Assembly (NCBI GenBank): GCA_963808235.1
Contig: CAWEEQ010000004.1
Span: 2,296,243 to 2,360,242 of the forward strand
Direction of reading: 5' to 3'
DNA length: 64,000 nt
Source: an uncultured delta proteobacterium
GTDB lineage: Bacteria > Desulfobacterota > Binatia > Binatales > Binataceae
Within the stretch, counting starts at the first letter, position 1. The number at the start of each line of letters is the position of its first letter. Of this stretch, positions 2,732-35,031 are shown piece by piece. The position numbers and the translations under genes are program-made. The notes under the pieces are model-generated. The model did no database searches. It was not told the DNA's origin and saw only the letters and a program-made list of their open reading frames with translations.

Positions 2732-3382
2732 TTAATGATGAGCAATCCCGAGCCGGGCCAGCTGATTGTGAGTATGCGTGTGCGATCCTGCACGCTCGAA
2801 TTCGGCGAGATCCGCGACGACGTCAAGGTCAAGCGCCGGTCGTGCAAGTCGCAGCACTGTAGCGGGAACATCGGTCGTTCGGCAATCGTCCAGATGCCGC
2901 ACCAGGCTCATCCGTCCGAACCGCGTCGCGACCGCGTCGGCCGGCGCCCGGCAGATCACGTTGGTGCCGGAGAAATCGCGCGACGGGACCAGCACCACGC
3001 CGCGGTCGGACCTGGACGGCATCGCGGCGAACACGGCGTCGATATCCTCTGCGGTAATGAGCGGGATGTCGGATAGCACGGTGCAAACGATGGAGGCGCC
3101 CTGGTCGATCAGCGCGGAGGTCGCAAGCGCGACGGCGGCGTTGAGCCCGCGCGGAAATTCCTCGTCGATGGTCAGCGCTTGCGCCGAGCGCGCCAGCTCG
3201 AGCAGCGCCGCATCGGAGGTCACCACGGCAACGTGATCGGCGGCGCGGGCGGATGACGATGCGGCCAGTACGTCACGGAACATTGCCTCGGCTAGCGCAC
3301 GACGCTCAGTCGGCGCAAATGCGCCCGCGAGCCTCGTCTTGGCAAATTCGAGCTGCTTGGCAGCGATAAGGATGACCCGCAC
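2732..3382 (-). CDS. CofC/FbiD-like 2-phospho-L-lactate guanylyltransferase (MobA-like nucleotidyltransferase)
   Basis: N-terminus MRVILIAAKQLEFAKTRL and an internal FSGTN motif resemble the CofC family. The call is by similarity only. Confidence 0.5.
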   Translation of the reverse strand: MRVILIAAKQLEFAKTRLAGAFAPTERRALAEAMFRDVLAASSSARAADHVAVVTSDAALLELARSAQALTIDEEFPRGLNAAVALATSALIDQGASIVCTVLSDIPLITAEDIDAVFAAMPSRSDRGVVLVPSRDFSGTNVICRAPADAVATRFGRMSLVRHLDDCRTTDVPATVLRLARPALDLDVVADLAEFERAGSHTHTHNQLARLGIAHH

Positions 3383-30157: not shown

Positions 30158-30338
30158 GACTGCGCGTTTCACGCGAAATGTAACCGTCTGGGCGATCCAC
30201 CAGAACATCGCGGCGCTATGTTGCCCTTGTAATGTTGCGTATCTTTAGGCAATAGAATTTTTGCTAATCGGCTACGTCCAATCTGATAGGGTGAGCTAAT
30301 GTGTCCTCATCCACTTGTGGGAGGTCCTGACACCTGAA

Positions 30339-30950
30339 ATGGCTGTTGCAGCGAAAGAAAAAGCTCCGACCGATCCGGCCGAACTGAAGAAGTGGCGTGA
30401 GGACGAGCAAGCCAAGGAACGCGCGAAACGCGACAAGGAAAAGACCGAACTCGGCACGCTGTGGAGCCGTCGCGATTTCCTGGGCGTGCTCGGATGGAGC
30501 GGCTTCGGCGCATTCTCGCTGATCGGATTGCTCGCGGCCGTGCGGTCCGCATTTCCGCGCGTGCTGTTTCTGCCCCCGTCGAAGTTCAAGGCCGGCTTGC
30601 CTGACGATTACGTAGTCGGCGAAGTCAGCGAGAAGTACAAGCAGGATTTCCGCACCTGGATTATCCGCACCAAGGCCGGCTTCTACGCGATCTTCGCCAA
30701 GTGCACTCACCTCGGATGCACTCCGCGATGGCTCAAGACCGAACAGAAGTTCAAGTGCCCGTGCCACGGCTCCGGCTACTACATCAGCGGGCTGAACTTC
30801 GAGGGCCCCGCGCCGCGCCCGATGGATCGATTTAAGATCTACGTCGGCGACGACGGCCAGCTCGTGGTCGATAAAGCGGTCATCTACACGATGGAACCAG
30901 GAGTCGATCCCAACGAGCAGCATCCAGAGAGCATCCTGAAAATCGTCTGA
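30339..30950 (+). CDS. Tat-exported Rieske [2Fe-2S] protein (bc1/b6f-type Rieske subunit-like), orphan
   Basis: Twin-arginine motif SRRDFLGVLG. Rieske boxes CTHLGC and CPCHGS. The start could alternatively be at 30315. Confidence 0.8.
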   Translation: MAVAAKEKAPTDPAELKKWREDEQAKERAKRDKEKTELGTLWSRRDFLGVLGWSGFGAFSLIGLLAAVRSAFPRVLFLPPSKFKAGLPDDYVVGEVSEKYKQDFRTWIIRTKAGFYAIFAKCTHLGCTPRWLKTEQKFKCPCHGSGYYISGLNFEGPAPRPMDRFKIYVGDDGQLVVDKAVIYTMEPGVDPNEQHPESILKIV

Positions 30951-30954
30951 GGGA

Positions 30955-32478
30955 CTACGCGAGCGCGAGACGCTCGAGCTGATCTTTGGGCGCTTCCATC
31001 TCGAGTAGGGCGGCGCGGAGTTTTTCGGCCGCTCGTTTTTCTTCCGTGGTACCAGCTAAGTTCGCTTCTTCGGCGGGATCGTCGCGCACGCGATACAGAT
31101 TGTTGCCGCTGAACTTGCCCATCGCCCAGTACGGAAGCAAATCGCCAGCTCTGAACGGCTGGCGGATTACCGGAATCCGCGAGCCCGGCATCCGGTCGAG
31201 CACCGCGCGCTCATCGGGCGGTGGTAGCAGGAGCTCGGGACGCTGCGGGATCGGCATCGTGGACCATCGATTCGACCACAGACTTAAGGGGGCGTTGTCG
31301 CCCGCCGGAGCGCGCGCGTACTTCATTTCTGCGTCGATTAGGTGCACCTCGCGGCCCCATATTCCGGCGATCGCCCAGTCGCGAATCGAGTTCGCCTCGC
31401 GAGTCATCAGCGGGAGCATCGAGCGCCCGTGCGTGCGATGCGCCAGCTCCACGCCGAAGATGTCGGCGAGCGTTGCGCAGATATCCACGTTGGTCGTGAG
31501 CGCGTCGACGCTGCCCGCGCCGATTCCCGGCGATGCGATCAGCAACGGCGTATGCCCGAGCGGCTCGTAGATAGGCACCGCGGGCTTGCCCCAGATATCT
31601 TTTTCGCCGAGGTAATGACCGTGATCGGTGCATACGATCACGGCGGTATCGTCATAAAATCCGCCTCGCTCGATTGCCGCCAGCAGCTTGCCGAGCCACA
31701 TGTCGATCATCGTGAGCTTCGCTCCGTACGACGCGCGAATCTGCGTCGCATCTCTTTTCGTGATCACGCCGCGTTCAATCGCGCCGCGTAAATACGGCGG
31801 CCAGATCAGATGCGCGCCTTGCCACGACGAATCGTACATCGAAGCGTACGGCTCCGGCGTGTCGAACGGCTCATGCGGATCGAATTCGTCGATGAACAGC
31901 ATGAACCGATCGTGGCTGCGCGCCGAGCGCTCGAGCCATTCGGTCGCGGCAACCATCGTGCGCGGCCCCGGAAAATCCGCCTCGTCGCGAAAATAGCCGC
32001 GCGAATTGTCATACGGAGTCTGACCGCGCCCGAAAGACGGCGCTCCAATCCAGCTTGGGTCCGGACGCGTCTGCCAGGGGTCGCTCTCGTGCCCGCGCTG
32101 GTAGTCCCAGGCGGTGAAGTCGGTGTGATAGTTCTCGCCGCCGACTTCAAACAAATGCGGATGGTCCGAGACGAGCTTGGTGACGACGCCGGCCGCGCGA
32201 AGGTACGCGGTCAGCGGCCGTTCCCAGATCTCGATCGAGCCCCACGGCTTCCACAGGAAATCGATCGCACCGCATAGGATGTCGTGACGGGCTGGGATGC
32301 ATGGCAGCGAACCGGCGTAATGACGATCGAAGCGAACGGCCCGGCGCGCGAACGCGTCAAGGTTGGGTGTTGAGAACTCGCGCCCGCCGTATGCACCGAG
32401 CATGTGGCGATTGAGGCTGTCGAGCAGGATTACGATGGCGTTTTGCGGCCGCAGCGCAGTGGCGTGATTCGGGGTCAT
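30955..32478 (-). CDS. Sulfatase (Cys-type, formylglycine-dependent)
   Basis: Sulfatase N-terminus ILLDSLNRHMLGAYGG and the modification motif C-I-P-A-R (CxPxR) in GSLPCIPARHD. Confidence 0.85.
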   Translation of the reverse strand: MTPNHATALRPQNAIVILLDSLNRHMLGAYGGREFSTPNLDAFARRAVRFDRHYAGSLPCIPARHDILCGAIDFLWKPWGSIEIWERPLTAYLRAAGVVTKLVSDHPHLFEVGGENYHTDFTAWDYQRGHESDPWQTRPDPSWIGAPSFGRGQTPYDNSRGYFRDEADFPGPRTMVAATEWLERSARSHDRFMLFIDEFDPHEPFDTPEPYASMYDSSWQGAHLIWPPYLRGAIERGVITKRDATQIRASYGAKLTMIDMWLGKLLAAIERGGFYDDTAVIVCTDHGHYLGEKDIWGKPAVPIYEPLGHTPLLIASPGIGAGSVDALTTNVDICATLADIFGVELAHRTHGRSMLPLMTREANSIRDWAIAGIWGREVHLIDAEMKYARAPAGDNAPLSLWSNRWSTMPIPQRPELLLPPPDERAVLDRMPGSRIPVIRQPFRAGDLLPYWAMGKFSGNNLYRVRDDPAEEANLAGTTEEKRAAEKLRAALLEMEAPKDQLERLALA

Positions 32479-32584
32479 CGTCTCTGAATCCCTGACTCAG
32501 ACTCAGTTTATATGCGAATTGGCAATTTGATAGTGTGCTTGACGCCGCAATGGATTCAACGCCGTGTAGTCAGGCAGGGGGACT

Positions 32585-32935
32585 ATGCTCGAAGAGCACA
32601 AATTCTTTACCGGGATGTTCGCATTCGGAGGTCGCGGGCTGGAAGAGCCGGTCAGCTTGGAGCCCAAGGCGGTCTATACAGTGCCACCGAACAAACGCGC
32701 GCAATTCATCTACGGACGGATCGGCAACCCGACGACCGAGTTTCTCTATGTGGCGCTCCAGCGCGACGGCAAATCGGTTCGTTTGTTCCCGTGCGGTCCG
32801 AAGAGCGGGATTACCGTACCGCTCGCGATCATCGATGACTGCCTGCCCGGCAGCATGGTCGAACTGAAGATCGCGGCGCCCGAGGGGCTCGCGGCGAAGG
32901 TGATGATAGACGTCGGCTTCGTGGAGTTCGAATGA
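32585..32935 (+). CDS. Hypothetical 116-aa protein, translationally coupled to the downstream oxidoreductase fusion
   Basis: No recognised motif. Its stop overlaps the ATG of the next gene (ATGA overlap at 32932-32935). Confidence 0.45.
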   Translation: MLEEHKFFTGMFAFGGRGLEEPVSLEPKAVYTVPPNKRAQFIYGRIGNPTTEFLYVALQRDGKSVRLFPCGPKSGITVPLAIIDDCLPGSMVELKIAAPEGLAAKVMIDVGFVEFE

Positions 32936-35031
32936 AGAACAAGCGCAATCTGGTCGTGATTGGCAACGGCATGGCGGGAGCGCGGACCGTGGAAGAGATT
33001 CTCGCCCGCGGCGGCGCCGAGATGTTCAACATCGCGATGTTCGGGGGCGAGCCGTTCGGAAACTACAACCGGATCATGTTGTCCGGGGTGCTTGACGGGT
33101 CTCACAAGGCGGCCGAAATCGTTCTCAATCCGCTCGCATGGTATGAGCAGAACCATATCCGACTGCATGCGGGTGTTCGCGCCGCGCGGATCTTGCGCTT
33201 CGCCCGCCGCGTGCTCGGAGCCGACGGATCCGAAGAGTCATATGACAAGCTTATCATCGCGACCGGCAGCCGCTCCTTCATTCCGCCGATTCCCGGGTTG
33301 ACGCAAAGCGACGGCGGCATGAAACCGGGCGTCTTCGGGTTTCGCTCGCTTGAAGATTGCCGACGGATGGCAGACTATGCGCACGGCAAAAAGCGCGCGG
33401 CGGTAATCGGCGGCGGTCTGCTCGGGCTTGAATGCGCGCACGGGCTGCAAAGCCTCGGCCTCGAAGTCCACGTCATGCATCGCTCGACCCACTTGATGAA
33501 TCAACAGCTCGACCCTGCGGCCGGCGCGATCCTGCGGTCGCTGGTCGAAGAAAAGGGCATCCGCGTGCATCTGGGGGCGGACACGGCCGCGGTCCTCGGG
33601 GACGAGCGCGTCAGCGGACTCGAATTCAAGAACGGCGAGACGCAAGAGTGCGAGCTGGTGGTCTTCGCCACCGGAATTCGGCCCAATGCCGAAATCGGGA
33701 CCCAATGCGGCCTCACTGTCCAGCTTGCGATCGTGGTCAACAACCAGATGCGCAGCGATGACGATCCGCACATCTACGCGGTCGGCGAGTGCGTGCAGCA
33801 TCGCGGGCAGACCTACGGCCTGGTGGCGCCGATATGGGAACAGGCCAAGGTGCTCGCCGATCATATAACCGGAACCAATTCCAACGCGTCGTATTTCGGC
33901 TCCAAGATCGCGACCCGGCTCAAGGTCGCGGGCGTCGAGTTGGCCTCGATGGGACTGACGGAGCCCGTCGAGGCGCGCGACGAGGTAGTGCAGTTTGCCG
34001 AACCGAAGCATGGGACCTACAAGAAGCTGATCATCCGCGACGGTCGCCTGATAGGCGGTATATTGCTCGGCGACAGTGGCAAGGCTGCCTACCTGCTGCA
34101 TGCATTCGAGAGCGACGCGCAGCTGCCCGATGAACGAATCCATTTGCTGTTCGATATTGGCGCCGCGCCCAAACGAGTGACGCTCGATCAGATCCCGCTT
34201 GATGCGCAGATCTGCAATTGCGAGAAGATCAACAAGGGCGCGATCGTCGAATGCGTGAAGAGCGGTCTGCGCACGGTGGAAGAGGTAAAAGCGGCGACGC
34301 GCGCCGGTCTTGCATGCGGGTCGTGCGCGGCGATGGTCGGCGAGATCGTCGAGTGGGCGTGCGGCGGTCAAAATTCCGCGCCCGCTCAGGAAGAAGCGGA
34401 ATTGCCGGGTTCGGATGGAGAGCATGAGCTACAGGACAAGTACGGCACGAGCTTCCAGGCACTCGCGTTCTACAACCATCGCGTGCTGGACCACCTGAAT
34501 TCCGCGATGCAGGAATTCATCGTTCAGCAGGAAATGATGTTCGTCGGAACTGCGGACAGGAACGGGAACGCGGACGCCTCGTTCCGGGCGGGGCACGCGA
34601 ACTTTGTTAAAGTGCTCGACCAACGAACCATCGCCTACCCGGAGTTTCGCGGCAACGGGGTGATGTCGAGCATGGGAAACATTTCGGAAAATCCGCACGT
34701 CGGGCTGATGTTCATCGATTTCGGGAAGGACCGGATCGGTCTGCACGTGAACGGAAGCGCACGCATCGTCGAGCACGACGAGTTCGTGCGATTGCTGGAG
34801 GCTCGTTCGGCCGCGAACGTTGTGCTCGGGGACTCGATGCTTACTGACCTGATCGCCAAGGATGCCGGCAACCTCGAGCGCTGGGTGATCGTTTCAGTCG
34901 ACGAGGCATTCATGCACTGTTCCAAGCATATCCCGCTGATGAAGAAGGCCGACCTTGAAGTGAGTTGGGGAACCGACGACGTGAAGGCCAAAGGCGGAGA
35001 TTACTTCGGCGCTGACCGAGTCGGGAAGTGA
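32932..35031 (+). CDS. NirB-like FAD/NAD(P)-dependent oxidoreductase + BFD-like [2Fe-2S] domain + C-terminal PNPOx-like FMN/F420-binding split-barrel domain (fusion protein)
   Basis: N-terminus LVVIGNGMAGARTVEEI plus a second Rossmann motif AAVIGGGLLGLECA. BFD-like CNCEKINKGAIVECVK...AGLACGSCAAM. C-terminal FVGTADRNGNADASFRAG...ENPHVGLMFIDF is PNPOx-like. Confidence 0.7.
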   Translation: MKNKRNLVVIGNGMAGARTVEEILARGGAEMFNIAMFGGEPFGNYNRIMLSGVLDGSHKAAEIVLNPLAWYEQNHIRLHAGVRAARILRFARRVLGADGSEESYDKLIIATGSRSFIPPIPGLTQSDGGMKPGVFGFRSLEDCRRMADYAHGKKRAAVIGGGLLGLECAHGLQSLGLEVHVMHRSTHLMNQQLDPAAGAILRSLVEEKGIRVHLGADTAAVLGDERVSGLEFKNGETQECELVVFATGIRPNAEIGTQCGLTVQLAIVVNNQMRSDDDPHIYAVGECVQHRGQTYGLVAPIWEQAKVLADHITGTNSNASYFGSKIATRLKVAGVELASMGLTEPVEARDEVVQFAEPKHGTYKKLIIRDGRLIGGILLGDSGKAAYLLHAFESDAQLPDERIHLLFDIGAAPKRVTLDQIPLDAQICNCEKINKGAIVECVKSGLRTVEEVKAATRAGLACGSCAAMVGEIVEWACGGQNSAPAQEEAELPGSDGEHELQDKYGTSFQALAFYNHRVLDHLNSAMQEFIVQQEMMFVGTADRNGNADASFRAGHANFVKVLDQRTIAYPEFRGNGVMSSMGNISENPHVGLMFIDFGKDRIGLHVNGSARIVEHDEFVRLLEARSAANVVLGDSMLTDLIAKDAGNLERWVIVSVDEAFMHCSKHIPLMKKADLEVSWGTDDVKAKGGDYFGADRVGK

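Follow-up and report, generated by a model that had tools for sequence, protein, structure and literature searches.

A two-gene unit in a 64,000-nucleotide stretch of DNA from an uncultured delta proteobacterium (assembly GCA_963808235.1, contig CAWEEQ010000004.1; the whole stretch is referred to as the window) encodes a small protein, named X here, and a 699-amino-acid fusion protein that joins the reductase half of a nitrite reductase large subunit (NirB) to a PNPOx-like split-barrel module. With slightly more confidence than doubt, we read the pair as a cytoplasmic electron-transfer enzyme that is dependent on reduced nicotinamide adenine dinucleotide (phosphate), NAD(P)H, and derived from NirB, in which a cofactor held by the barrel would serve as relay and X would be an accessory of the reductase half. 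Its domain content shows that the enzyme does not belong to the known, sirohaem-dependent class of reductases that turn nitrite into ammonia. The Pfam and NCBIfam models and the literature that were searched describe neither the fusion nor X.

Gene X, located at positions 32585-32935 (32585..32935) of the forward strand, encodes a cytoplasmic jelly-roll protein of 116 amino acids without a Pfam or NCBIfam family, and the fusion gene follows at 32932-35031 (32932..35031) of the same strand. Both lie where an earlier sequence-only reading of this DNA had placed them. The two genes overlap: the ATG of the fusion gene and the TGA of gene X share the letters ATGA at 32932-32935. A GGAG stands 5 nt upstream of that ATG, and the GGAG, the 5-nt spacer and the ATGA together make up what reads as a translational coupling site (32923..32935, forward strand). 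Another purine-rich, Shine-Dalgarno-like sequence, AGGGGGA, was read at 32576..32582 of the forward strand, 2 nt ahead of the ATG of gene X. A scan for promoters and terminators, including the sigma-70 consensus, returned nothing exceeding chance at the operon. The pair is bordered upstream by a divergent sulfatase gene and downstream by a GNAT-like gene in convergent orientation that ends four bases away, and therefore forms a self-contained two-gene operon.

The lineage that carries the pair is the phylum Binatota. Close relatives of X were searched in species-representative genomes, which gave 19 loci from Candidatus Binatus, Binataceae, organisms labelled 'uncultured delta proteobacterium' and one 'Candidatus Acidiferrales', and 22 related loci were examined in all. 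Nearly all of these loci belong to Binatia-type metagenome-assembled genomes, and the window itself comes from a soil bacterium. The fusion gene lies directly 3' of X in every one of the 22 loci; the conservation of the small open reading frame (ORF) alongside the fusion gene, on which the sequence-only reading had staked its proposal, was thus found throughout. About 85 database clusters share the fusion architecture of some 700 amino acids (63-92% identity) and 75 clusters carry protein X; because of these numbers and the adjacency of the two in 22/22 loci, both ORFs are taken to be genuine genes rather than products of chance. Of the window's 71 ORFs, only the pair is syntenic in the related loci, and no other gene recurs between the 22 loci except lineage-abundant paralogues, which agrees with the claim of a free-standing unit. 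X is duplicated in tandem ahead of the fusion in three of the loci (L021:8001-8742, L023:8001-8713 and L024:8001-8712), the copies being 64-73% identical to the X of the window. Two loci look degraded: in one, nothing of the fusion follows X but ~75 residues from the end of the barrel module (L020:8001-8630), and in the other only fragments of X and of the reductase half are left (L027:8001-8949).

The domain assignments on the 699-amino-acid protein (Pyr_redox_2, Rubredoxin_C, Fer2_BFD and PNPOx_N in Pfam) all exceeded their cut-offs. Its N-terminal part starts with a two-dinucleotide-fold module for flavin adenine dinucleotide (FAD) and NAD(P)H at residues 6-293 (32947..33810, forward strand, as for the other parts of this gene; Pyr_redox_2, E = 4e-52), in which both GxGxxG dinucleotide motifs are intact (residues 11-16 and 160-165). 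A Rubredoxin_C-type domain (residues 327-394, 33910..34113; PF18267, E = 3.5e-15) and a BFD-type [2Fe-2S] domain (residues 427-474, 34210..34353; PF04324, Fer2_BFD, E = 2e-11) follow. The four [2Fe-2S] ligands C428, C430, C462 and C465 are all present and are kept in every fused and canonical NirB that was aligned. The family models, the intact motifs and the four cysteines thus bear out the NirB-like FAD/NAD(P) and [2Fe-2S] half that had been proposed from the sequence. The closest solved structures to this half are rubredoxin reductase (2V3A, E = 1e-31) and putidaredoxin reductase, both FAD enzymes that reduce small iron proteins, and NorW matches it at E = 3e-44. Like the fusion, NorW-NorV, Hcr-Hcp and the rubredoxin and putidaredoxin reductase systems use an NAD(P)H:FAD reductase of this class, which delivers electrons to an iron centre and then to a terminal redox site, but their carrier and terminal folds are different (rubredoxin, flavodiiron, hybrid cluster) and usually reside in separate proteins.

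The similarity to NirB ends where the sirohaem part would begin. In the NCBIfam model of NirB (TIGR02374), residues 1-482 of the fusion match profile positions 1-474 of 794, with 473 bits against a cut-off of 578, and the PNPOx_N match comes after this point, which confirms the proposed replacement of the sirohaem half by a PNPOx-like domain. Neither of the sirohaem/[4Fe-4S] domains, NIR_SIR_ferr (PF03460) and NIR_SIR (PF01077), was matched in the 699-amino-acid protein, whereas its canonical relatives have both. Since these two domains are missing, the fusion is unable to carry out nitrite reduction based on sirohaem. The next-best matches after the fusions are canonical NirBs of 812-817 amino acids with NIR_SIR domains, which are 65-73% identical across the N-terminal 70% of the query. 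Compared with NirB as defined by TIGR02374, the fusion has the same FAD, NAD(P)H, [2Fe-2S] and HRS motifs, and the X partner is also found beside a close canonical NirB; it differs in the absence of the NIR_SIR_ferr and NIR_SIR domains, of a NirD gene and of an adjacent nasA or narK. No NirD (Rieske_2) gene was found beside the fusion, whereas canonical operons have one; the 3' gene in the window is the GNAT-like one, and the 22 loci share no recurring neighbour. The fusion and the nearest canonical NirBs have the HRS motif, which ends the NAD-binding strand, in common, and a shift from NADH to NADPH specificity in the fusion was rejected on that ground.

The public names of the fusion are 'FAD-dependent oxidoreductase' at NCBI and 'NAD(P)H-dependent nitrite reductase large subunit' at JGI (P0008, P0009, P0017 and others). 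Considering which domains are present, the latter label is misleading, and because it is given in spite of the missing catalytic half, gene-centric surveys of the nitrogen cycle would count Binatota as nirB carriers.

The C-terminal part of the fusion is a complete PNPOx-like split-barrel module (residues ~491-699, 34402..35028), connected to the BFD domain by a linker of about 15 residues (residues ~475-490, 34354..34401), the junction sequence being WACGGQNSAPAQEEAE. Its barrel has seven strands, to which a helical insert and, at the C-terminus, an invariant tail (CSKHIP...WG...GGDYF) are added. PNPOx_N (PF01243) matches residues 524-630 with 53.4 bits against a cut-off of 28.1, and this match and the split β-barrel fold support the earlier assignment of the domain as a split barrel. 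The C-terminal 217 residues match 5,715 proteins. Standalone members of this family are 209-240 amino acids long, start just ahead of the LPGSDGEH motif next to the linker, and align end to end with the module (94-98% coverage, 57-67% identity), with about 60 invariant columns and the motifs GSxGEHxLQxK, QEMMFVGTAD, YPExRGNGVM, ENPHVGL, CxKHIP and GGDYF. Because the whole 217-residue region aligns end to end with the standalone proteins, the further uncharacterised C-terminal segment of ~70 amino acids, which the sequence-only reading had taken as an extra element, lies inside the barrel module and is its rear part, comprising the helical insert, the last strand and the tail. All invariant motifs and the fold are thus shared with the standalone PNPOx-like barrels (COG3576-type); the difference is that the barrel of the fusion is covalently joined to an NAD(P)H/FAD/[2Fe-2S] reductase. 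In this sense the fusion serves as a 'Rosetta stone' for these very abundant split-barrel proteins: the prediction is that a NirB-type FAD/[2Fe-2S] module reduces them.

The 116-amino-acid protein had been described as having no recognisable motif. This holds as far as the Pfam and NCBIfam scan is concerned, which gave no family match, but the protein belongs to a conserved jelly-roll family that is located between nasA and nirB and is often fused to NasA. X is a member of this rare family, which has no Pfam model and is found between nasA and nirB in other bacteria. A more distant group of X proteins, separate from the 22 close loci, was collected in a metagenome scan (393 relatives, 80 loci kept). 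A NirB-type reductase half lies directly 3' of X in 70 of the 72 metagenome loci with sequence available, and the sirohaem half is present in all 36 loci with at least 2.7 kb downstream; the PNPOx module was found in none of the metagenome X loci. A NasA/NasC-type gene lies directly 5' of X in 43/56 loci. Of the upstream NasC-type cases, 48 were assessed; the gene is fused with X in frame in 25 of them and is separate in 23. In the fused proteins X forms a C-terminal extension of NasA-type molybdoenzymes, beyond the Molydop_binding domain and a linker rich in Pro, Ala and Arg. It was also considered that X could be akin to the Molydop_binding domain of NasA; this was rejected, as X follows that domain in the fused proteins and its fold is a jelly roll.

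The gene content of these operons is illustrated by locus L093, which encodes NasA::X (838 amino acids), NirB (849 amino acids), NirD (Rieske_2) and an MFS transporter, and by L044, where X is accompanied by a full NirB and by a regulator of the GlnR type, in DNA of 64-73% guanine plus cytosine (GC). This points to Actinobacteria. The cultured Mycobacterium sp. MS1601 has a family member under the name 'molybdopterin oxidoreductase'; it is 37% identical to the X of the window (E = 2e-23), and a profile search recovers both groups. In locus L112, a canonical NirB that is 65% identical to the fusion sits in a narK-nasA-X-nirB-nirD operon whose X is 48% identical to that of the window (E = 1e-38). 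The X-nirB junctions in canonical operons (e.g., L093, L035 and L044) are as tight as that of the window. The X of the window is thus homologous over its full length to the X family of nasA-X-nirB operons and is likewise tightly coupled ahead of a NirB-type reductase half, but it has a divergent sulfatase gene upstream instead of a NasA-type gene. X is an unnamed, conserved and often NasA-fused component of nitrate-assimilation operons, and its persistence with the NirB reductase half offers a testable idea on how electrons are routed from NirB to acceptors. Some X proteins are named 'assimilatory nitrate reductase catalytic subunit' or 'molybdopterin oxidoreductase', labels that were carried over from NasA::X fusions. 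In a divergent branch of the family (29-32% identity), X lies fused or adjacent to sigma-70 region-4 proteins; three members (P0416, P0410 and P0452) are joined in one ORF with a sigma-70 region-4 domain and one (P0420) is standalone. These apparent joins, either true fusions or read-through gene calls, hint that the jelly-roll domain may work as a regulatory or binding module.

Based on these results, the following mechanism is proposed. NAD(P)H would reduce the FAD of the reductase half, and single electrons would leave the FAD via the [2Fe-2S] cluster to the cofactor held by the barrel, probably at a dimer interface. This cofactor, most likely flavin mononucleotide (FMN) and possibly haem, would pass the electrons on to an acceptor, which may be a small molecule or a partner protein. 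X would be an accessory subunit inherited from narK-nasA-X-nirB-nirD operons. As it is the sole neighbour retained when nasA, narK, nirD and the sirohaem domain were lost, X most likely binds or modulates the reductase half; it could, for instance, be the piece on which the electron acceptor docks, or an adaptor for it. Companionship of X with the barrel was considered instead and rejected, since X never occurs beside a standalone barrel.

Several observations weigh against this proposal. A sister nasA-nirB-nirD operon, otherwise the same, lacks X, and X would therefore be accessory to NirB rather than an obligatory subunit; the contact of X with the reductase half rests on gene order and gene fusions. 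For the barrel, relatives that bind FMN, FAD, F420 and haem match its fold at similar scores, the top ones binding FMN or haem, and the only sequence-level match in the PDB is the haem-binding HupZ at a non-significant E value of 0.05. The structure model of the barrel has moderate confidence (predicted local distance difference test, pLDDT, 68) and leaves the invariant tail unplaced. Finally, the ~60 invariant residues of the barrel family suggest a demanding catalytic site and not a simple relay.

The cofactor of the barrel bears on two of the alternatives. Neither X nor the barrel had a significant match when its sequence was compared with those of solved structures. The nearest curated model, TIGR04025 (MSMEG_1061 family, FMN-dependent PPOX), matches the barrel at profile positions 14-124 of 197 with 90.6 bits against a cut-off of 170, and a standalone relative (P0265) reaches 94.9 bits. 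It has been cautioned that similarity does not separate flavin from haem binders in the split-barrel superfamily (PMC11602992). The ranking that we infer, FMN first, haem second and F420 last, follows from the donor: a [2Fe-2S] cluster gives one electron at a time, whereas F420 is an obligate hydride carrier. Of the flavin or deazaflavin end that had been suggested for the chain, the deazaflavin part is unlikely after such a donor, and FMN or haem would fit better.

That the barrel binds F420 and the protein is an F420-linked oxidoreductase is for this reason held to be very improbable; the nearest curated family is of the FMN type and the top structural matches bind FMN or haem. A CofC-like guanylyltransferase gene does occur at positions 2732-3382 of the reverse strand (PF01983, 91 bits), and from this gene the organism may make F420. 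The sequence-only reading had cited CofC-like, LLM and dodecin genes as context for the pair; the CofC-like gene is real, but the linkage does not hold, as the gene is 30 kb off and no flanking gene is syntenic in the related loci. A self-sufficient enzyme that degrades or handles haem, with a HugZ/HupZ-type barrel and a built-in reductase, is given equally little credence: apart from the insignificance of the HupZ match, no iron- or haem-uptake genes were found nearby, and both the X partner and the N-terminal half derive from nitrate-assimilation operons.

Another explanation is that the fusion supplies electrons from NAD(P)H to a nitrate reductase encoded elsewhere in the genome, as a counterpart of Flp or NasB-NasG, with X docking NasA. 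It was reported that Flp of Bradyrhizobium, an NAD(P)H flavoprotein resembling the N-terminus of NirB, is the proposed electron donor to NasC and also the proposed supplier of the haemoglobin Bjgb, and that the NADH site of NasB in Paracoccus feeds both NasC and its own sirohaem site via NasG (PMC4724949). The same hub logic fits a NirB reductase half that serves an acceptor other than sirohaem; X is joined in frame to the C-terminus of NasA-type enzymes through a long Pro/Ala/Arg-rich linker, and a 2Fe-2S domain is not seen in these NasA proteins themselves. However, Flp and NasB-NasG are encoded beside nasC and have neither a split barrel nor X, while nas genes are absent from the fusion loci: the 64-kb window and the ±8 kb around each of the 22 loci contain no nasA/nasC, narK or nirA-type gene and no NasC-, NarK- or sirohaem-type sequence. 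An added split barrel would be needless for a NasA reductase, and X occurs without an adjacent NasA in 13/56 loci. We therefore regard the supply of a distant nitrate reductase as unlikely.

A further explanation holds that the barrel itself is catalytic, with flavin or haem, and reduces or detoxifies nitrite, nitric oxide (NO) or hydroxylamine in place of the sirohaem domain. The contexts of standalone barrels bear on it. One subclade of barrels of ~209-214 amino acids belongs to a cluster whose genes encode, in this order, a sigma-54 activator, the barrel, a NarK-family transporter, a nitrate reductase of the NasC-like type (788 bits), a 4Fe-4S protein resembling DmsB, a Rieske protein and DUF6755. 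Such nitrate-type clusters were found at L005:3286-9693, L006:227-6634 and L028:8001-14418, which are mutually close relatives, and one remnant was seen. Four of the seven standalone barrels sampled have unrelated contexts, and a general location of standalone barrels in nitrate clusters was therefore rejected, the association being seen in one lineage only (3/7 sampled). Because the nitrate clusters come from close relatives and the other four barrels lie elsewhere, the link between barrel and nitrate is weak. Moreover, six-electron nitrite reduction is not known from any split barrel. A catalytic barrel of this kind is accordingly considered improbable, to about the degree of the distant nitrate reductase.

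Its boldest form, to which we give a little less credence still, combines two claims: that the barrel is a new nitrogen-oxide catalytic domain replacing the sirohaem domain, which would make the fusion a sirohaem-independent NAD(P)H reductase of nitrite, NO or hydroxylamine, and that X is a widely conserved subunit coupling NirB-type reductases to their acceptors, including those of ordinary actinobacterial nasA-nirB operons. Neither X nor a NirB-type reductase was ever found beside a standalone barrel in the sampled loci. In the L005, L006 and L028 clusters the NarK-family transporter has a C-terminal extension resembling TcuB, and the cluster has no nitrite reductase. Adjoining another standalone barrel (P0224), a 300-amino-acid protein at L004:3280-4182 contains two segments with weaker similarity to PNPOx (31% and 39% identical to the module) and may be a tandem-barrel paralogue.

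Three clusters of long variants (P0069, P0075 and P0076; 916-920 amino acids) contain the whole fusion followed by about five transmembrane (TM) helices with two conserved H-x13-H pairs. This histidine spacing is a hallmark of di-haem ferric-reductase-type domains; the Pfam Ferric_reduct match of the long variants is weak. X is kept upstream of the long variants, and on their 3' side lie genes for a pentahaem cytochrome c (5 CXXCH) with a membrane anchor at its N-terminus and for a Tll0287-like monohaem protein (L001:885-5207 and L002:751-5073). Together, the long variants and the cytochrome genes have the look of a new type of conduit that would take electrons from NAD(P)H across the membrane. 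With NOX/FRE/MsrQ-type proteins these variants share a cytoplasmic NAD(P)H-flavin module and a membrane domain with two bis-His pairs of H-x13-H spacing, but their cytoplasmic part is of the NirB type with a [2Fe-2S] domain and a split barrel, not of the ferredoxin-NADP reductase type.

As the membrane domain and the cytochrome genes come after the barrel in the long variants, the barrel can occupy the middle of an electron-transfer chain. It might then be thought that the 699-amino-acid fusion, too, passes electrons to a chain in the membrane or outside the cytoplasm and is the soluble equivalent of the long variants, in which the entire fusion, the di-haem-type TM domain, the subsequent cytochrome genes and the upstream X are already assembled. 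The extension is however present in only three clusters, no membrane partner is conserved beside the 699-amino-acid form, and the protein of the window has no TM segment, the membrane domain with bis-His pairs being limited to the long variants. This makes such a role quite improbable for the window protein, for which a cytoplasmic relay is still preferred.

The remaining features of the window lie outside the pair. A 211-amino-acid Rieske [2Fe-2S] protein is encoded at 30315-30950 on the forward strand, and the divergent sulfatase of 507 amino acids at 30955-32478 on the reverse strand; neither is conserved beside the pair elsewhere. A functional link of the sulfatase, Rieske, GNAT, MBL hydrolase and CofC-like neighbours to the pair was rejected, as none of them shows synteny. 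The other window ORFs tested are housekeeping genes.

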